36,795 nt of DNA from an uncultured Bdellovibrionales bacterium (GCA_964472005.1 CAYYIQ010000003.1:1-36795); one strand, 5' to 3'; positions 10,600 through 26,950 are shown, counted from the stretch's first letter. Notes: generated by a model not told the origin, from the letters alone. A program made the numbers and translations.

Positions 10600-11748
10600 A
10601 TGACGCACCGTATCTTAGTAGTTGATGATTCAGAAGAAAACCGTTGGATGGTTAAGTACTGCCTTGCGGCCGATGGTTATGCTGTCGATGAACTGGAAAG
10701 CGGTCAAGAATTACTCGATTTGGGAGAGAGAGTTACAGAGTTCGATTTAATCTTGCTTGATGTAATGATGCCCAATCTTGATGGGTTTGAGACATGTCGA
10801 ATCTTCAAAACTCAAGCATTTGCAACGAACATCCCCGTAATATTTCTTACTGCTGAAAGTGAAGAAGATAGCAGAGTTAGCGGTTTCCAGGCAGGGGGAA
10901 TTGACTATATTCTCAAGCCTTTTGGGAGAAAGGAATTGGGTATGAGAGTCAAGTCTCATTTAGCGCTTTCTAATAAGTTTAAAGAGGTAAGTCACGAAAA
11001 AGAAACCCTAAGAGCAAATCTACAACGTGGAGCCGAAATTCAAAATGCATTTTTACCTTCGAAGACATTTACCCATCCAAACTTAAATATTGCCTGGGAT
11101 CATCGACCAATTGAGCATATCGCGGGTGATATGTTTGGTTTTATTGATTTCGATGACGGTTCATTAGGAGTGTATTTACTTGATGTATGTGGACACGGAT
11201 CTTCTGCAGCTTTAGTGGCTTCAGCTGTATGCGGGGCAATCACAACTAATCGAGATCTAATGGGCTATGAGGATGCGGGTCGGTACTATCCACGGGACCC
11301 TAGTGATTTCTTCTCGAGATTAAGCAAGCATTTCCCGTATGAAAAGTACGAAAGCTATTTTACGTTTTCGTATGTTGTAGTCGACCCAAAAAATCATAAT
11401 TCAAGAATTGGGGTTGCTGGACATCCAGCTCCGTATTTAGTCGGATCTGAAACCGTTAGCAAGGTTGACGTAATTGGGGCGATCTTAGGTCTCGACTTAG
11501 ATAGTAAATGGGCAAGTCAAAAAATTATATTTAAGCAGAATGACAAAATCATTATTGTTTCAGACGGAGTATTGGAATTAACGAACAAGTCAGGCAGATT
11601 TGATAAAGTTATAGATTCAGTTCTTGTTCAACATTCTAAAGGTGATGCAGAAAGTTTGGTTCAAGGTTTGCGGCATCATATTAACGAATTTGTGGATAAC
11701 GGTGAAATAAAAGATGATTTGACGATTATATGTGTAGAAAATAAGTGA
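10600..11748 (+). CDS. Response-regulator receiver fused to PP2C/SpoIIE phosphatase (RsbU/RsbY-like)
   Basis: Intact REC domain (VVDD, LLDVMMP, FLTA, YILKPF). PP2C motifs AGDMF, DVCGHG, SDGVLE and DDLT. Confidence 0.92.
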   Translation: MTHRILVVDDSEENRWMVKYCLAADGYAVDELESGQELLDLGERVTEFDLILLDVMMPNLDGFETCRIFKTQAFATNIPVIFLTAESEEDSRVSGFQAGGIDYILKPFGRKELGMRVKSHLALSNKFKEVSHEKETLRANLQRGAEIQNAFLPSKTFTHPNLNIAWDHRPIEHIAGDMFGFIDFDDGSLGVYLLDVCGHGSSAALVASAVCGAITTNRDLMGYEDAGRYYPRDPSDFFSRLSKHFPYEKYESYFTFSYVVVDPKNHNSRIGVAGHPAPYLVGSETVSKVDVIGAILGLDLDSKWASQKIIFKQNDKIIIVSDGVLELTNKSGRFDKVIDSVLVQHSKGDAESLVQGLRHHINEFVDNGEIKDDLTIICVENK

Positions 11749-11782
11749 AATTCGAAGCACTTTGCAGTGAAAAAGGAAAAAA

Positions 11783-12127
11783 ATGTTAAAATTAGTTGAT
11801 TCAAAGTTAAAACGTTACAAGCTTCTCAAAGTGGAGTCTTCTGTAATTGATAGTACCAATTTCTCAGAATTCAAATTAGGTCTGATGAAGGAACTGCGTC
11901 CAGATGAGACTATAATATTAAATCTGGAGAACGTAAATTTTGTAGATAGTAGTGGGCTTGGTGCACTTATTTCGGGTTTGAAAGCTGTCGGGAATCCAGA
12001 GCTTCTTATTCTATGTGGATTGAATGAACAAATTATAAGCCTATTGGAACTTACTTGCTTAGATAAAGTTTTTAAAACCACTAAGGACTATCAAGATGCT
12101 TTAGAAGAAGTAGGACCTCGGCCATGA
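11783..12127 (+). CDS. STAS anti-anti-sigma factor (RsbV/SpoIIAA-like)
   Basis: NLENVNFVDSSGLGALI contains the phospho-Ser motif. L.LT.LDKVF tail. Confidence 0.9.
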   Translation: MLKLVDSKLKRYKLLKVESSVIDSTNFSEFKLGLMKELRPDETIILNLENVNFVDSSGLGALISGLKAVGNPELLILCGLNEQIISLLELTCLDKVFKTTKDYQDALEEVGPRP

Positions 12128-12549
12128 TGAAGTTCTCGTGCGAATTGCCAGCAAATTTTCAAAGTCTTAAGTCTCTTAGGGAACTTTTGCAGCGTTACGA
12201 AGCCGAGTCATCGAATGGACTTAAACGTTTTTCTCAAATTGAACTAGCCTTGATTGAAATTTTTACTAATATTGTGAAACATGGAGAAGTTATCAAAGAT
12301 GATTTAATCGAAGTTCAATTACGATCGAGTGGAAATGAAATGAATATTCAGCTAATTGATAATGGAAAGCAATTTCTACCTTCTATTCTCGAAACAGTCA
12401 TGCCAAGTATTTCACAAGATATCGACTTGCTACCAGAAAATGGATTTGGTGTCCCTTTAGTAGTTTCAATTACAGATTCAGTCCGATACGAGCGAAAAGA
12501 CGAGAAAAACTTCACAACTCTTATCTTCGTCCTAGATGAGGATTCCTAG
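12124..12549 (+). CDS. Anti-sigma factor / Ser kinase (RsbW-like, HATPase_c_2)
   Basis: ELALIEIFTNIVKHG (N box), DNGKQF (G1) and ENGFGVPLV (G2). ATGA overlap with the STAS gene. Confidence 0.9.
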   Translation: MMKFSCELPANFQSLKSLRELLQRYEAESSNGLKRFSQIELALIEIFTNIVKHGEVIKDDLIEVQLRSSGNEMNIQLIDNGKQFLPSILETVMPSISQDIDLLPENGFGVPLVVSITDSVRYERKDEKNFTTLIFVLDEDS

Positions 12550-18377: not shown

Positions 18378-19112
18378 ATGAGGATTTATATCTTAACATG
18401 CGAGGATCCTCTTTTTTCGGATAGGATCTTTAAGCACCTGTTTAAGACACTTCCAAATCAAATTGTTGGTGTCGGATTTGCAGCCGGTCTAGTTACCTTT
18501 GATAGGGTTGTTGTCACTTTACTTGTATATGGACCAATCAATTTTTTGAAATTTGGCTTCGAAGTATTTAGAACAACACTCTTTGGTAGTGGCAAGGTTG
18601 AAAAAGTTTGTGCGGAAAACGGTATTTCTGTGGACAAGCCCAAGACAATCAAATCACAAGAATTTTTGGAAAACTTAAAACGCTTAGAACCAGATTTAAT
18701 TGTCTCGATTAATTGTAATGAAATCATTGGTAAGACGATCCGCGAAATTCCTAAATATGGGGTTATAAATCTTCATAACGGAGATTTGCCTCGTTATCGA
18801 GGATTGATGCCAATATTTCATGCAATTAGATTAAGAGAGAAGAGTATTGGTGTCTCAGTTCAAGAAATTGATTCAGGGAAACTTGATTCAGGTCCAATCT
18901 TGGGCCAAGAAAAAATGGATCTACTAGAGAAAGAAGACCTTCTATCTGCGTGGAGTAGGGCGACGGAGGTCGGTTCGAACCTACTTCTCAAAGTAATACG
19001 GAATTTGCAGAATAATGAGTGTCTTCCTCAGAAAAATGATGAGAAACTAGCTACTTATTATACACTTCCAAGTTTCAGGGAAATTTATCAATATTGGAAA
19101 ATCATAAAATAA
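18378..19112 (+). CDS. 10-formyl-THF-dependent formyltransferase (single catalytic domain)
   Basis: INLHNGDLPRYRG and LDSGPI carry the N/H/D triad. 244 aa, lacking the tRNA-binding C-domain of Fmt. Confidence 0.88.
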   Translation: MRIYILTCEDPLFSDRIFKHLFKTLPNQIVGVGFAAGLVTFDRVVVTLLVYGPINFLKFGFEVFRTTLFGSGKVEKVCAENGISVDKPKTIKSQEFLENLKRLEPDLIVSINCNEIIGKTIREIPKYGVINLHNGDLPRYRGLMPIFHAIRLREKSIGVSVQEIDSGKLDSGPILGQEKMDLLEKEDLLSAWSRATEVGSNLLLKVIRNLQNNECLPQKNDEKLATYYTLPSFREIYQYWKIIK

Positions 19113-19126
19113 GTTTGATCGACCTA

Positions 19127-21649
19127 ATGAATTTAATTAGAAACATAAAGTTATATTCAAAAACTAATATAGAGATTTTTGCGCTAGTTATTTTAGCTGC
19201 AGTTTTTTTAGGCAATGAAATTTTACTTTTACAAACTGATAGTTTTTGGAATTCGTACAGCTTCCCGTATAGCAAAACTTTCCCTATCTTAGCTATTCTT
19301 GCAGTCTTTTATTTTACTCAAGCAATGGTTTCGTCTAGTAGCATTCTTCGTTTGTTTGTACCTGTTACGATCTGGTTATTGTTTCTTTTTTGCGTTGCTA
19401 ACGATAAAATCGAGATTGTCCTTTTTTGCTTGTTCCTGCTGGGAAATTGGCTAGTTGTAAAGGGCTTTGCTGGAAGCCTAATGCATTTCTTTAATGTTAA
19501 TATTTCACTTGCAATTTCATATTTGATTTTTCAAGTAATATTGCAGTTTTACTATCTAATGTTGGCACTGATCGGACAACTAACTATCGAACTTGTATTT
19601 TTACCGATCTTTTTACTTGGATCGTATGGTTGCCTATTAACATTTTATAAAATTAGGAATGAAGGTCTACCAACTTCATCCTATAGACTTTCGGGTTATG
19701 ACTTAAATTCTAATTCAATTATTTTCTTTAGTATCATAATTTTTTCCATAGTCTTTATTTCAGGTTCAATTCCACAGACTTATACCGATGGTCTTGTTTA
19801 TCGCCTTCCTTTCCTTAAGGATCTTTTGGATACAGGTGCGATGCCAAGCCATCTATATCTTTGGGCGCGATTAATTCCTCAAAGCGTAGTTTTTCAGATG
19901 GTACCAGCTTATTTCGTATTTGGTGAGATCGGTGCCGTATGGACTGTGTTCACATTCTTAATCGCTTTGTTTTTTATCGTCGTAGAATTCTGTGACGAGT
20001 TGGAAATTTCTAAGGGCTTGGGGCTTTTTACCGCGTTCATGATTATTTCACATCCAGTCATCTGGTTGCTATCTACGGTTGTGTATAACGATATTCCAAT
20101 TGTGTGTTATTCGGTCTCTGGCCTTTTGTATCTCTTTAAATTTAGAAAAAATTCAAAGGAGCTAGATCTTCTATTCGCGTTAACTTTGTTGGCCTTCGCA
20201 TGTACAATAAAACTAAATGTGCCGATTTTTATCTTGGTAACATTAGTTACATGGATTTTGATTGATCCGAGAATAACAAAATTATTATTTAGGGTTCGAA
20301 ATATTTGGTCTGTTGGGATATCTTTATTGGTATTGTTACCTTGGTATTTATGGACATATTACGAAACAGGTAACCCATTTTTTCCTTTTTTGGGAAAATA
20401 TTTTAGCTCTAAGTTCCCCGCAGATACGATATTTACAGATGAAGCTAATAGTATGTTTGCTGCATTTGATAGTTTCATCGAATATCTCATGATTCCATGG
20501 TCATTAACTTTTAGCACTTCTAGGTTTGGCACCTATCCGAATGGCTCATTTGGACCTATCTTACTTTTTTTAACCCCATTCTTAATTTTTTCAATCATAA
20601 GATTAATTAAAGACGGTCTAATTTTTTCACCTGATACTAGAATTAGACTTATTCTAGTATTTGCTCCGTTATTGACGTTCCTAGGAGTCGGGTCGGTGAT
20701 TGGCTTATTATATTTTAGATATTCCCTTGCGGCATTTGTTACATTCGTTATCGGTGCTACCGCATTAATTGATCAATTGAAATTCAAAAATGTTAAACCT
20801 CTCCATACCCAGTTTGCATGTCTTTCACTTACTTTGTTCCTTGTCTTAGTAGGGGCCCGATCCAACTATGGAGTCACTGGAGGAATTGGAGATGAAATAT
20901 TTTCAGGAGAAGTGAGTGAGGACGAATTTAAGAATAGGTTAACTCACGGTGTCGATGATTATTTAAATGAGGTTTTAGAGAAGGATGAAAACGTAATCTC
21001 TTATATCTTTTTCCCGATAAACAGAATCAAAAATGAAGTATATTTTGTTTCGACCAAAACTTCTTTATTTGGCCAAGTTCTTGAACCTGAATCCTTTGGG
21101 GTATTTACTAAAAAACATAAGATAAGATATGCGATCGTAAATAATTCAAACATTCCTGAATTTTTAAACACAGCAGGCTTCTTTGGCCAAGTTTTTCGTG
21201 ATGAAGGATTGGTATACGGTTCCGGAAATTATGCAATATATGATCTGTGGCAAGGGGGGCGGGGAAACTGGTTAAAGCATTCTTTATTTGGGGATGAGTT
21301 AAATGATAAGATTGAAGTTTCGGCTAATCCAGACGAGTGGCTTGTTCGTGAATTTCCGATTGATAAAAAAGTTGAACTTGTGAGAGGTAAGGTTAAGGTC
21401 GTTACAAAAGAAGAAAAATCATCTCTATTAGTAAATTTGGTTGAATACGACGCGAACAATCGTGAATTACGACAAGAAATACCTGCAAAGGAATTGCTTC
21501 GAGAAGTGGAAGATGAGTTGAAATTTGTTTTTAAGCCATTAAATGACACTACAAAGGTTAAGATAATTGTACATCCTTGGAGAGAGGTAGATGGTAGTAT
21601 ATTTGTTCTAGAAGGAGAGGTTTATTTTAAAATGGGCAAGGACAAATGA
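19127..21649 (+). CDS. Large multi-TM protein, GT-C (ArnT/PMT-like) glycosyltransferase candidate with soluble C-terminal domain
   Basis: More than 12 hydrophobic segments, loop motifs TDGLVYRL, YNDIP, TIKLN and LPWY…Y..TGNPFFPF, plus a beta-rich C-terminal region. ATG 19127 preferred over TTG 19094. Confidence 0.6.
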   Translation: MNLIRNIKLYSKTNIEIFALVILAAVFLGNEILLLQTDSFWNSYSFPYSKTFPILAILAVFYFTQAMVSSSSILRLFVPVTIWLLFLFCVANDKIEIVLFCLFLLGNWLVVKGFAGSLMHFFNVNISLAISYLIFQVILQFYYLMLALIGQLTIELVFLPIFLLGSYGCLLTFYKIRNEGLPTSSYRLSGYDLNSNSIIFFSIIIFSIVFISGSIPQTYTDGLVYRLPFLKDLLDTGAMPSHLYLWARLIPQSVVFQMVPAYFVFGEIGAVWTVFTFLIALFFIVVEFCDELEISKGLGLFTAFMIISHPVIWLLSTVVYNDIPIVCYSVSGLLYLFKFRKNSKELDLLFALTLLAFACTIKLNVPIFILVTLVTWILIDPRITKLLFRVRNIWSVGISLLVLLPWYLWTYYETGNPFFPFLGKYFSSKFPADTIFTDEANSMFAAFDSFIEYLMIPWSLTFSTSRFGTYPNGSFGPILLFLTPFLIFSIIRLIKDGLIFSPDTRIRLILVFAPLLTFLGVGSVIGLLYFRYSLAAFVTFVIGATALIDQLKFKNVKPLHTQFACLSLTLFLVLVGARSNYGVTGGIGDEIFSGEVSEDEFKNRLTHGVDDYLNEVLEKDENVISYIFFPINRIKNEVYFVSTKTSLFGQVLEPESFGVFTKKHKIRYAIVNNSNIPEFLNTAGFFGQVFRDEGLVYGSGNYAIYDLWQGGRGNWLKHSLFGDELNDKIEVSANPDEWLVREFPIDKKVELVRGKVKVVTKEEKSSLLVNLVEYDANNRELRQEIPAKELLREVEDELKFVFKPLNDTTKVKIIVHPWREVDGSIFVLEGEVYFKMGKDK

Positions 21650-23483: not shown

Positions 23484-24677
23484 ATGAAAGAAAATGATAC
23501 TTTCTATTTGCAGCTTGGAGAAATTCTAAAATCGATTTCAAATGACGGGCTTTACAAAAACGAAACAATTATCTCAAGCCCGCAAGATTCGTATATCTCA
23601 GTTGGAAATAGAAAAAAGATATTAAATCTTTGCTCAAACAACTATTTAGGTCTCGCTAATAATAATGAAATTAAGGCCGCTGCGATTCAGGGTATTAAAG
23701 ACTGGGGCTATGGATTATCTTCTGTTCGGTTTATTTGTGGTGCTCAGGAAATTCATAAGCAACTTGAAGATAGTCTTAGTAAATTTTTAATGACAGATGA
23801 TACTATCTTATATAGTTCCTGTTTCGACGCAAATGGAGGTCTCTTTGAGACTATATTAGGTCAAGGAGATGTTATTGTTTCTGACGAACTAAATCATGCA
23901 AGTATTATTGATGGAATAAGATTGTGTAAATCTGCGAGAATTCGTTATCGTAATAATGATCCAGAAGATTTAGAGAGAAAGTTAAAAGAAATAAAAACAA
24001 GTGGAAAAATTTTAGTTGTTACAGATGGCGTTTTCTCAATGGACGGAATTATCGCTAATCTTAAAGATATATCAACGGTATGTAAAAAATATAATGCATT
24101 ATTGATGGTCGATGACTCCCATGCTGTAGGCTTTGTTGGAAAAGGGGGGAGAGGCACACATGAGTATCATGATCTATTGGGGAATGTTGATATCCTTTCA
24201 GGTACCTTTGGAAAAGCGTTAGGTGGAGCATCGGGTGGCTATATTACGGGTCGACAAGAAATTGTCTCATTGTTGCGACAACGATCAAGACCCTACCTTT
24301 TTTCAAATTCTCTCGCACCAATGATTGTCGTCGCGACTTTGAAAGCATTGGATATTATATCGAGAGATGGCTCTCTTAAGGAAAGACTTGATGATAATAC
24401 TAAGTACTTTAGATCAGAAATTTCGAAATTGGGGTTGGATATAATTAGAGGAGAACATCCAATAGTTCCAATAATGTTGGGAGATGCTCATCTAGCAGGG
24501 GAGTTTTCTAGGCAGTTGTTAGAAAGAAACCTTCTAGCAGTTAGTTTCTCCTTTCCGGTCGTGCCAAAAGGGAAAGCTAGAATAAGGACACAAATTTCAG
24601 CAGCACTCACTCGACAGGACTTAGATTTAGCAATTGAGATTTTTCATGATGTTAAAAACTTACTTTGTAAGAGTTAG
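23484..24677 (+). CDS. kbl: Glycine C-acetyltransferase (2-amino-3-ketobutyrate CoA ligase)
   Basis: NNYLGL, SSVRFICG, SCFDANGG, NHASIIDG, DDSH, GTFGKALGG, RQRSRPYLFSN and PVVPKGKARIRTQ. Confidence 0.96.
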   Translation: MKENDTFYLQLGEILKSISNDGLYKNETIISSPQDSYISVGNRKKILNLCSNNYLGLANNNEIKAAAIQGIKDWGYGLSSVRFICGAQEIHKQLEDSLSKFLMTDDTILYSSCFDANGGLFETILGQGDVIVSDELNHASIIDGIRLCKSARIRYRNNDPEDLERKLKEIKTSGKILVVTDGVFSMDGIIANLKDISTVCKKYNALLMVDDSHAVGFVGKGGRGTHEYHDLLGNVDILSGTFGKALGGASGGYITGRQEIVSLLRQRSRPYLFSNSLAPMIVVATLKALDIISRDGSLKERLDDNTKYFRSEISKLGLDIIRGEHPIVPIMLGDAHLAGEFSRQLLERNLLAVSFSFPVVPKGKARIRTQISAALTRQDLDLAIEIFHDVKNLLCKS

Positions 24678-24700
24678 AAGGACTATTAAACCTTAGTATT

Positions 24701-24742
24701 AAAGAAAAAGTATGACCATAATTTAAAAGTATGGCCATACTT
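24701..24742 (-). terminator. Intrinsic terminator downstream of the tandem csrA
   Basis: The minus strand reads AAGTATGGCCATA-cttttaaat-TATGGTCATACTT (13-bp stem with one G-U pair), followed by TTTCTTT. It starts 38 nt after the csrA stop. Confidence 0.65.
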
Positions 24743-24780
24743 ATTTAAAATTGTCGTGGAATCCATTTTGTTATCCAAGT

Positions 24781-25251
24781 TTATTTTTTATCGCGACCTC
24801 GATGAATTGCATTGTATACCTCTTCTCGATGCACCGGAACTTCTTTGGGAGCTTCAATACCAAGGCGTACTTTATCTCCCCTGATATCAACAACTTCGAT
24901 AAAAACATCATCCGCAATTAGAATGCGTTCATTCCGACGTCGGCTGAGAACGAGCATGCCTCCGAGTTCCCCCATTTCCTTATGACTAGCAACAACATTA
25001 TTTTCGATGGTCGGTACGTCTAGGGGAGCGACAATTTTTTCTTCAATCTCTACGACCTCGACCTTACTATTTTTAAGATCAAGTTTGCTTTGACGTTGAA
25101 TTTCATCGTAGATCTCTTGCCGATGAATGGGAACTTCTCGTGGAGCGTTTATTCCAAGTCGGACTCGATTGCCTCTAATTTCAACCACGGTAATGAAAAT
25201 GTTATCACCGATAATTATTCTTTCGTCTTCGAACCTACTAAGTACCAACAT
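24781..25251 (-). CDS. csrA: Tandem double-domain CsrA/RsmA-family RNA-binding protein
   Basis: Two full CsrA domains: aa 1-54 (MLVLSR…VRLGINAPREVPIHRQEIY) and aa 99-156 (MLVLSR…VRLGIEAPKEVPVHREEVY). GGAGG lies 9 nt before the ATG. Confidence 0.93.
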   Translation of the reverse strand: MLVLSRFEDERIIIGDNIFITVVEIRGNRVRLGINAPREVPIHRQEIYDEIQRQSKLDLKNSKVEVVEIEEKIVAPLDVPTIENNVVASHKEMGELGGMLVLSRRRNERILIADDVFIEVVDIRGDKVRLGIEAPKEVPVHREEVYNAIHRGRDKK

Positions 25252-25296
25252 CTTTTGGTACCTCCGAATAAGGGAGTGAAAAAACTAAAAACAAGC

Positions 25297-25302
25297 ATTA
25301 TA
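25297..25302 (-). promoter_or_regulatory. Putative -10 box (TATAAT) for csrA
   Basis: Exact TATAAT on the minus strand, 45 nt upstream of the csrA ATG. No consensus -35 at 17-nt spacing (that position lies inside the inverted repeat). Confidence 0.4.
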
Positions 25303-25303
25303 C

Positions 25304-25352
25304 ACTGCTCTGCTTGATACTTCTCTATTGGAGAAGTATCAAGCAGAGCAGT
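25304..25352. repeat. Perfect 22-bp inverted repeat with 5-nt spacer
   Basis: ACTGCTCTGCTTGATACTTCTC (25304-25325) - TATTG - GAGAAGTATCAAGCAGAGCAGT (25331-25352). Confidence 0.95.
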
Positions 25353-25597
25353 ATGACAAATAGTTTTACAACCATCTGTTAGTTGAATTTTCACTACGAT
25401 AAATCAGGAAAACCTAGCTACCTTCTAACCGCGGGGTAAGTACCATAAATTGGTCGGAAATAGAAGGGTCTTAATAGATACCTGATAATATTAGAGAATT
25501 ACTGAGGTTGAGGAATCATTCAGAAGATATTTTTGTGTGTAGGAGGTGTTCTTAATGGTTAAGCGGCTGTACTGCATGACGTTCTGTGAATGTCGGG

Positions 25598-26950
25598 TCA
25601 GCATTCAGTTATATTCACGGCGAGTCCACCTTTCGATGTTTCTTTGTAGATATCTTGCATATCTTCGCCTGTTGTTTTCATTGTTTTGATAACTTTATCT
25701 AGACTGACAATGTGGTCGCCATCTCCCTGAAGAGCTAGGCGAGATGCATTTATAGCTTTAATCGCGCCCATCGCGTTTCTTTCAATGCAGGGAACTTGAA
25801 CAAGTCCAGCAATTGGGTCACAAGTTAAACCAAGATTGTGTTCCATTCCGATTTCAGCGGCATTTTCAACTTGTTCTGGTGTACCACCCATTACCTCGGT
25901 CAACCCAGCTGCTGCCATGGAACATGCAACACCGACTTCACCTTGACAACCAACTTCGGCTCCCGAAATTGAAGCATTTGTTTTAAAAAGTATTCCAATT
26001 GCGGTTGCAGTTAATAAGAATTTTTCAATTCCAATTTCGTTACCGTTACAAAAGTTAACATAGTATTTTAAAACTGCGGGTATAATACCTGCAGCACCAT
26101 TAGTTGGTGCTGTCACTACTCTTCCACCAGCAGCATTTTGTTCGTTTACTGCAATTGCATATAAACTAACCCAGTCCATGATTTTAAGTGGATCCAAAGA
26201 ACTAGATTGGGTGGATAGCTTTTGGTTTAACGAGAAAGCTCTCCTTCTAACTTTTAAACCGCCGGGTAAGATTCCTTCTGTATTACAGCCTTGTTCGATA
26301 CTTAGGTCCATCGCATTCCAAATCTTCATAATTTGGATTTTTACCTTTAATTCGGATTGCCAGCTGCATTCATTCTCCCAAATCGCAGTTGATATACTTA
26401 TTTTTCTATCTTTGCATAATTCGAGCAACTCCTTACCAGTCCTAAAATAGTGCGGCGGGTTTAATTGGGTTAAGGCTTCTTCGTCAGACGTTTTTACAAA
26501 GCCGCCGCCAACAGAATAATATATTTTTTCAAGGATTAGTTTTTTATTTTCGAACGCCTGAAATTTCATGGCATTCGAATGAAACGGGAGGGTGTCTACT
26601 CGATTGAAAATAAGATCGGTTTGATGATTATATGGGATGTTATGTTTTTTTAGTAACTTTATTTTACCTGTGGCTATAATTTTTTCGATTCTTTTTTCGA
26701 TTTTTTGAATTAGAATTTCTTCAGGAATTTCCCCTTCGAGACCCATTAGTATAGCTTTTTCACTTCCGTGAGCCTTGCCCGTGAATCCCAGAGAACCAAA
26801 GAGTTCAACTCTAATACCATTTGTTTTTGAGATTAGATTTGCAGAATTAAGGTTCGTAGCGAATAATTTCGCGGCTTTCATTGGGCCAACAGTGTGGGAG
26901 CTTGAAGGTCCTATTCCGATTGAAAACAAATCAAAAATTGAAAGATTCAT
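25598..26950 (-). CDS. sdaA: L-serine ammonia-lyase, Fe-S dependent, single chain
   Basis: [49 protein letters not shown] and [20 protein letters not shown]. Confidence 0.96.

Follow-up and report, generated by a model that had tools for sequence, protein, structure and literature searches.

The DNA analysed here, the window, is one strand of 36,795 nucleotides from an uncultured Bdellovibrionales bacterium (GCA_964472005.1, CAYYIQ010000003.1:1-36795), with positions counted from its first letter. On its minus strand lies a csrA gene that encodes two CsrA domains in a single polypeptide, here called tandem CsrA. The gene is real, and its product is an uncharacterised variant of a regulator already known, of moderate interest. 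Our preferred reading, to which we give a probability of about 60%, is that it is a natural single-chain CsrA predicted to fold as an intramolecular pseudo-heterodimer, with one canonical and one detuned RNA-binding face, and to act independently of FliW. An old internal duplication would have brought two CsrA domains into one polypeptide of 156 residues. The two halves would then fold onto each other within the molecule and give the interlocked beta-sandwich that usually takes two CsrA chains, the linker would loop out as a disordered acidic segment, and the product would work as a FliW-independent paralogue beside the flagellar CsrA-FliW pair of the same genome. From the evidence below we infer that the protein is a monomer that binds RNA with unequal affinities and has a regulatory role.

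Domain make-up and predicted fold

The gene is an open reading frame (ORF) with an ATG start, a TAA stop and zero internal stops. When the protein was compared with Pfam, PF02599 matched in two stretches (E = 1.7e-47, 159.6 bits with a cut-off of 27), each spanning profile positions 1-52/53, and the NCBIfam csrA equivalogs NF002469 and TIGR00202 both scored above cut-off, again with two stretches each. A custom hidden Markov model (HMM) built from the homologue hits placed the domain bounds at residues 1-54 and 99-152. The C half has no C-terminal extension past its helix. An earlier reading by a model from the sequence alone (the original prediction) had proposed two complete CsrA domains in one reading frame, identical at 34 of 53 residues by manual alignment and joined by a stop-free linker of about 44 residues. 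The two Pfam stretches and our own count of 34/53 (64%) agree with this, and the linker is 44 residues long (55-98), open in frame and acidic, with nine acidic against five basic residues.

In CsrA, R6 on beta1 and H43-R44 on beta5 make up the RNA-contact core, as reported from an alanine scan of CsrA and from work on RsmE-RNA. Both halves have retained it, as R6 and H43-R44 in the first and R104 and H141-R142 in the second, which the original prediction had read correctly. R6/R104 and H141/R142 are invariant across an alignment of 62 tandem sequences. H43 and R44 are among the four residues that were mutated in PMC5864733. Members of the family bind GGA motifs in RNA, repress translation and form a homodimer of identical chains with two identical sites; what we found is one chain with unlike halves. 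Because it is a single chain of 156 residues with halves 64% identical, as against a homodimer of identical chains of about 60 residues, the protein is a variant of the CsrA/RsmA family (PF02599) and not an ordinary member.

We modelled the protein with AlphaFold2, using a 62-row alignment of tandems. The monomer model, a check suggested with the original prediction, had a mean predicted local distance difference test score (pLDDT) of 88 and a predicted template modelling score (pTM) of 0.73, with both halves confident at pLDDT 96-98. Secondary structure assigned to the model by DSSP gave the CsrA pattern of five strands and one helix in each half, with strands 2-7, 11-14, 18-26, 29-35 and 42-44 and helix 45-61 in the N half, and strands 99-105, 109-112, 116-124, 127-133 and 140-142 and helix 143-155 in the C half. 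The linker from 62 to 98 was predicted without secondary structure (pLDDT block means 72, 67, 52 and 66). Because a pTM of 0.73 was reached with only about 118 of the 156 residues ordered, the halves appear to be placed confidently against each other. The beta1 and beta5 strands of CsrA are not known to pair within their own chain, but with the second one; the DSSP strands 2-7 and 42-44 therefore imply a partner, which in this model is the other half.

Structural comparison pointed in the same direction. Each half superposed with Foldseek on CsrA chains taken from dimers (5z38, 2bti and 1vpz) with template modelling (TM) scores of 0.88-0.93 by target and a root-mean-square deviation (rmsd) of 0.5-1.0 Å, and VIA-align gave Z 6.8 and rmsd 0.7 for the C half against 1vpz_A over 57 aligned residues. 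Among the 48,161 chains searched with VIA-align, unrelated single-domain beta-sandwiches aligned 75-100 residues distributed over model positions 1-148; such generic matches (Z 4-8.6) are no sign of homology. Because single beta-sandwich domains align across residues 1-148, the predicted model is one compact body. The ESM Atlas has a separate model of this protein, in which residues 1-147 aligned with TM 0.92 (by that row) to a 105-residue single-chain CsrA cluster of 96 members, whose commonest label is Candidatus Peregrinibacteriota, and that model also aligned with TM 0.91 to an 88-residue single-chain cluster of 56 members, 53% of them viral. Together, pTM, DSSP and the structural neighbours support well a predicted intramolecular CsrA-like pseudo-dimer. 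The covalent pseudo-heterodimer of the original prediction is favoured as far as its fold is concerned (pTM 0.73, superposition, compact single-chain clusters), and its RNA faces are something that we infer from the residues described below.

Table 1. Positions of the tandem csrA gene, its parts and other features in the window and the source genome (G000)
Feature	Position	Strand	Description
Tandem CsrA ORF	24781..25251	-	156 residues; stop at 24781-24783; from ORF listing and translation
N half, residues 1-61	25069..25251	-	Five beta strands and helix; R6, F7, E8, D9, R11, F19, H43-R44
Linker, residues 55-98 by HMM	24958..25089	-	Disordered part about 62-98; 9 D/E, 5 K/R
C half, residues 99-156	24784..24957	-	Complete CsrA domain; R104, R105, R106, R109, F117, H141-R142
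Shine-Dalgarno-like GGAGG	25261..25265	-	9 nt upstream of ATG; sole GGA in the short leader
Perfect 24-bp hairpin between sdaA and csrA	25302..25354	-	RNA fold -44.3 kcal/mol, z -9.3
RsbU/RsbV/RsbW-like partner-switch trio	10600-12549	+	Response-regulator/SpoIIE-type phosphatase, STAS-domain protein, HATPase_c_2 anti-sigma-like kinase
851-residue ORF in sugar-modification cluster	19094-21649	+	No Pfam family at E <= 0.01
Flagellar-type csrA, about 106 residues	Contig C324, directly upstream of fliW		From genome search
Single-domain CsrA	G000:C24:16909-17064 (L004:1303-1692)	-	64-residue C-terminal tail rich in E, K, L, Q
Second, much more divergent tandem CsrA	G000:C2:33634-33948 (L005:1471-1833)	+	111 residues, almost no linker
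Example repeat loci, G000	C105:6210-7350 (L048:405-1550), C234:7-502, C355:1581-1800, C141:8906-9097

Two probably unequal faces and the predicted pairing of the halves

In the RsmE-RNA complex, as quoted in PMC5864733, each RNA is seated on a surface to which one chain gives beta1 and its partner beta4/beta5. Transferred to the tandem protein, face A would be built from beta1 of the N half (R6, F7, E8, D9) and beta5 and helix of the C half (H141, R142, E143), and face B from beta1 of the C half (R104, R105, R106, N107) and beta5 and helix of the N half (H43, R44, Q45). Because the arginine and histidine core is kept on each, both faces probably grip GGA-containing RNA. The residues that follow R6 on beta1 differ between the halves, SRFED in the first and SRRRN in the second, and this contrast in charge, to which the original prediction had drawn attention, amounts to a net -1 in the N half against +3 in the C half over positions 6-9.

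The asymmetry is not only real but unusual. For comparison we used 118 two-domain proteins in which both domains covered at least 45 profile positions (9 of 127 two-domain proteins were dropped, and 7 with three or four domains were left unused), together with 109 single-domain CsrAs and a first set of 63 tandem homologues. A net charge of -1 over positions 6-9 occurred in only 3 of the 118 N halves, and a charge below +1 in 0/109 single-domain proteins. Phenylalanine at position 7 was seen in 1/63 N halves and glutamate at position 8 in 2/63. PMC13443453 includes positions 7, 11, 45 and 47 in the determinants that it names on the RNA-binding surface. Between the halves, position 7 is F in the first and R in the second, position 45 Q and E, and position 47 I and V; position 11 is R in both, where 90 of the 109 single-domain CsrAs have S. 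Because surface positions 7, 8 and 45 differ between the faces, face B should be the stronger, canonical site, with face A weaker or differently tuned. On this reading the protein would regulate translation through two sites that are not equivalent and are held in a fixed 1:1 ratio.

Several points weigh against this reading. The pairing of the halves rests on pTM, DSSP and structural neighbours, not on inspected contacts or predicted aligned error; AlphaFold2 tends to reproduce the dimer-state conformation of CsrA from co-evolution alone, and a linker of 44 residues is also long enough for swapping between chains. With regard to the faces, position 8 is basic in 105/109 of the sampled single-domain CsrAs and is not known to be so in E. 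coli CsrA, which makes it uncertain what E8 does. F7 and E8 may simply disable face A and leave a one-sited protein. Finally, the best tandem homologue is only 53% identical and no orthologue with the same linker was found, so that the conservation of this asymmetry cannot be checked.

A protein with only one working site is rather unlikely. In such a protein face A would be abolished by F7, E8 and D9, the acidic and hydrophobic end of beta1 in the N half, and the protein would bind one GGA site without two-site bridging or cooperative sequestration, like engineered one-site CsrA. The charge over positions 6-9, extreme as described above, speaks for this, as does the naming of lysine at position 7 as a determinant of function in PMC13443453. 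One-sidedness is also a common end state among tandems. When we classified the faces of the 118 proteins by the R6 and H43-R44 core, 62 had kept both faces, 38 only the beta1(N)+beta5(C) face, nine only the other and nine neither, so the H43/R44 core of one face is lost in 38/118. H43 was lost in 45/118 N halves, 17/118 C halves and 0/109 single-domain CsrAs; R6 was present in all N and all C halves of the first homologue set (63/63 each) and R44 in 114/118 N and 116/118 C halves. The tandem CsrA of the window falls into the two-faced class. Face A keeps R6 and H141-R142, residues retained in nearly all CsrAs; one-sided tandems usually lose the beta1(C)+beta5(N) face, which is fully canonical here; and purifying selection is visible on both halves. 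These findings argue against a disabled face A.

We regard pairing between molecules as unlikely. Here the halves would combine across chains (N-N', C-C' or N-C') into dimers or open-ended chains with at least four RNA sites, able to bridge or condense RNAs. CsrA halves are built for a like partner, and the linker, predicted to be disordered, does not force the intramolecular arrangement; it is among the longest of its kind, with 44 residues against a median of 21 and a length of at least 40 in only 4/118 tandems. Tethering, however, keeps the other half of the same chain at a far higher concentration than any other partner, and AlphaFold2 placed the halves of one chain confidently together. 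A predicted complex of two full-length copies scored 0.00 against a mark of 0.42, which we count on neither side. Furthermore, the spacer has 15 residues or fewer in 33/118 homologues, and the compact single-chain forms of 88-105 residues superpose on the whole model. Because of these short spacers and compact forms, the family as a whole appears to work as a single-chain unit.

If the single-chain pseudo-heterodimer is the right reading, it would provide a fixed pair of non-equivalent sites, which is beyond what a homodimer can evolve. Mechanistic studies of CsrA take a symmetric homodimer for granted: its two faces are the same, and they either join a pair of GGA sites or are titrated by sponge RNAs with many sites. 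With two faces in one gene, affinity, specificity or partner binding could be tuned separately for each, and a single chain would largely avoid subunit exchange with the three other CsrA paralogues of the same cell.

Distribution and precedents

The architecture is not restricted to this bacterium. A search for proteins of near length (85-273 residues) yielded 7241 proteins, and 63 of the 75 that were scanned with Pfam (out of the best 119; P0002-P0068 and eight longer ones) had two CsrA stretches. When 1.84 billion representatives were searched exhaustively with HMMER, 25,886 members of the family came out at E <= 0.001, and in the best 150 of these the custom HMM counted 84 with two domains, five with three, two with four and 59 with one. 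The resulting figure of at least 91 clusters with two or more domains is a floor and not a frequency, since a two-domain query favours two-domain hits. Tandem CsrA is widespread, under the plain annotation 'carbon storage regulator', and the rarity implied by the original prediction did not hold. That prediction had also allowed for the architecture being common and already characterised. Common it is, but no paper that deals with a naturally occurring tandem or single-chain CsrA came up in phrase searches of the literature, and in the text of PMC13443453, a 2026 survey of more than 20,000 CsrA homologues, the terms 'tandem', 'duplicat*' and 'two domains' occur 0 times outside the supplements. 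With the architecture in more than 90 sequence clusters, including those of candidate phyla radiation (CPR) bacteria and phages, one biochemical study would annotate a large, overlooked class of tandem CsrA.

Among 41 related genomes, we found five tandem loci in four genomes (two in G000 and one each in G003, G027 and G029), and the five genomes of the same family had no counterpart of the window gene. Two other searches bear little on the spread of tandems. A contig search for related loci returned 21 loci that are all single-domain CsrAs, matched through the helix motif, and is therefore uninformative on this point; a phylum-wide search of 124 genomes gave 194 matches, and tandems could not be counted from the best 150 of these 194. 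We also noticed relatives with three or four CsrA-like domains per chain (P0165 with 310 residues, P0192 with 248 residues, P0159 and P0184), which would be single-chain 'double dimers'.

Next to the canonical CsrA/RsmA/RsmE homodimers (PF02599; 1Y00, 2BTI, 1VPZ, 2JPP), each half is 46-54% identical to the solved chains. The R6/H43-R44 core is kept, and the predicted interlocked beta-sandwich has two composite faces. The window protein differs in being one chain of 156 residues instead of two of about 60, in having unequal faces (SRFED and SRRRN; Q45 and E143) and in its added acidic linker of 44 residues. The nearest precedent is an engineered protein, Re-CsrA, which consists of CsrA(1-44)-GGGGSGGGGS-CsrA(1-61) (PDB 5Z38; Ye et al. 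2018, PMC5864733). According to that paper, it was designed to remove one CesT site, folds, binds RNA and CesT, and was crystallised. Because Re-CsrA folds and binds both ligands, the CsrA topology tolerates an N-to-C tether. Re-CsrA is man-made, its first half lacks the helix and its linker has 10 residues, whereas the window protein is natural and has both helices, the cores of both faces and a linker of 44 residues. Several natural short-linker tandems, such as P0048 and P0054, are like Re-CsrA in that the first helix is lost. A sequence search of the PDB with tandem CsrA returned only ordinary CsrA chains and the two Re-CsrA pieces.

A natural tandem would be a ready scaffold for heterodimer experiments that have hitherto needed engineering. 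One such construct, the HD-CsrA of Mercante et al. 2009, is reportedly a heterodimeric one-site CsrA, made by co-expressing wild-type and mutant chains that associate non-covalently, and is said to have shown that one dimer bridges two GGA sites. Two non-equivalent faces are common to both proteins; in tandem CsrA a single gene encodes the difference. The CsrA fold has also been re-wired in nature in RsmF/RsmN of Pseudomonas (4K59, 4KJI), which keeps the RNA-binding arginine but is a homodimer with a permuted helix position. Its matches to the tandem model were poor (Foldseek rmsd >12 Å over 143-144 columns; VIA Z 4.7).

Other CsrA genes, origin of the duplication and the locus

A search of the whole genome revealed six CsrA domains in four genes. 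One of them belongs to a FliW-CsrA partner switch of the B. subtilis type (5DMB), and the sole FliW match of the genome (PF02623, E = 2.4e-32, C324:1663-2013) adjoins it. In contrast to this flagellar CsrA, to which it is 42-48% identical, the window gene is on another contig and its product has no C-terminal extension. Its halves are 58-75% identical to short CsrAs of same-family genomes and 42-58% to the flagellar type, by which both class with the non-flagellar type. Neither of the features of a FliW-regulated flagellar CsrA, an adjacent fliW and a C-terminal extension, was found for the window protein, and for this reason it is probably a FliW-independent paralogue. In the second tandem CsrA of the genome, the R6 position of the second half is L, and R replaces H43 in both halves. 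The single-domain CsrA on contig C24 has an unusual N terminus, MSVFSR, where nearly all others have MLVLSR.

The same genome carries, outside the window, a GGA-dense repeat family that is specific to it. Its hairpin module, CCTGGAT-CCCTGC-TTYC-GCAGGG-ATGACGG, occurs in 90 copies on 57 of 379 contigs (at most 4 mismatches in 27 bases) and frequently continues into tandem arrays with a 19-nt unit, approximately CGCAGGGATGACGTCGGGA, with two GGA per unit that are 8 and 11 nt apart. The arrays make up 47 loci on 35 contigs, 5.2 kb in total, and often lie at contig ends. An 18-mer of the unit (at most 1 mismatch) had 80 matches here against 0-2 in each of 40 relatives, and the reversed-pattern control had 0; the window has no copies of the repeat. 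Because 19 is not divisible by 3, arrays of this period are non-coding. They have no defined fold, and six repeat loci gave 0 Rfam matches at E <= 1. The genome has one match to Y1 transposase (25.9 bits, cut-off 23), and the sober reading is a family like repetitive extragenic palindromes and their associated tyrosine transposases (REP/RAYT), with slippage arrays. The array core CAGGGAUG resembles the CsrB repeat and the consensus from in vitro selection (SELEX) with CsrA. The arrays may be linked to the expanded set of CsrAs, a point on which a single genome offers no statistics. We think it quite improbable that tandem CsrA is half of a lineage-specific Csr-like circuit, in which its two unlike faces would have been shaped by evolution to recognise pairs of GGA sites of fixed spacing in CGCAGGGATGACGTCGGGA arrays, the arrays would be sponge or scaffold RNAs for the expanded set (4 genes, 6 domains), and a REP-like family would have been recruited as a CsrB-like antagonist.

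The DNA of the two halves is identical at 100 of 159 bases (63%). Matches by codon position numbered 46/53 at second and only 19/53 at third positions, and the same codon is used at only 12 of the 34 identical residues. Because third positions and codons have diverged while second positions were kept, the halves class as an old duplication under purifying selection and not as an assembly duplicate, in line with what the original prediction had concluded from divergence at the DNA level. Of 345 domain sequences, only the two halves of this protein combine R11 with F19, and the other 343 lack the pair; because of this confinement, the sequences point to a duplication within the gene, in this lineage, more than to the joining of two unlike paralogues. 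Each half is nearer to single-domain CsrAs (75-77% identity) than to its partner half (64%). A FastTree phylogeny of the 345 domains, halves and singles together and 54 columns wide, was unresolved, with supports of 0.5-0.87 near the query and N and C halves scattered among the singles in 62 and 68 maximal pure clades; one ancient fusion and many therefore look the same in it. Nearest-neighbour counts carried some signal of position (N-N 51 against N-C 15; C-C 39 against C-N 11).

In the last linker codons, a GGAGG (24959-24963) stands one base before the ATG of M99 and is probably a relic of the ribosome-binding site of the second copy. M99 opens the second domain, and the ORF could in principle give two products, the full-length chain and, from an internal start, a free C-half CsrA of 58 residues that could homodimerise or pair with the full-length chain. 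We consider this very unlikely. The spacing of one base compares with 9 nt at the true start, a methionine starts only 23 of 63 homologous C halves, so that the family does not rely on an internal start, and the frame is open throughout, as public contigs confirm.

For the last point we compared the region 24600-25600 with Logan contigs of four public runs (X1-X4), which are aquifer or groundwater metagenomes of one year, one of them possibly the source sample of the window; depth was low (2-6). None of the public records listed as containing this stretch is of RNA. The linker was bridged by one contig of X1 (24772-25600) and one of X2 (24888-25232), each with 0 differences and 0 gaps, which speaks against a stop or frameshift there, one of the refuting findings named with the original prediction; in X3 it was covered by two overlapping contigs, and in X4 positions 24914-25052 were uncovered. 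The public contigs are modest but real support for the integrity of the frame. That an error in sequencing or assembly joined two neighbouring csrA genes is extremely unlikely: the source genome was assembled from a metagenome, is broken into 379 contigs and has a low depth of reads, but the X1 and X2 contigs reproduce the linker, the identical protein is recorded from five contigs, more than 100 homologues share the architecture, and the linker runs stop-free through 44 codons.

Tandem csrA lies 346 nt downstream of sdaA (stop at 25598) on the same strand and is convergent with kbl. The hairpin between sdaA and csrA (Table 1) is unique in the genome by blastn, and 0 of 200 shuffles folded as well. 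It is probably a terminator or insulator of sdaA, which would make tandem csrA monocistronic; a consensus scan for promoters and terminators over 24500-25800 called nothing on the minus strand, this hairpin included. A TATAAT directly follows the hairpin. The Shine-Dalgarno-like GGAGG of the leader might conceivably serve as a CsrA site. A fold of the 76-nt leader with the start codon in a hairpin loop was rejected, as it was no better than shuffles (z -0.12), and Rfam gave 0 matches on the window at its gathering threshold. Of five same-family genomes, one (G003, contig C56) had sdaA; the nearest kbl homologues, 56-61% identical, belonged to G002 and G003 and lay on different contigs; the sdaA and kbl contigs of G003 had no csrA match. 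The neighbourhood is not conserved and so offers no hint of what the gene does. The stretch as a whole is ordinary chromosomal DNA, with dapA, mlaA, genes for lipopolysaccharide and sugar modification, tdh-kbl, sdaA, PBP1A, ruvAB and an NtrY-like kinase, and the named relatives of its RuvB are from Oligoflexia (72% identity), Bdellovibrionales (69%) and Bdellovibrionota (65%).

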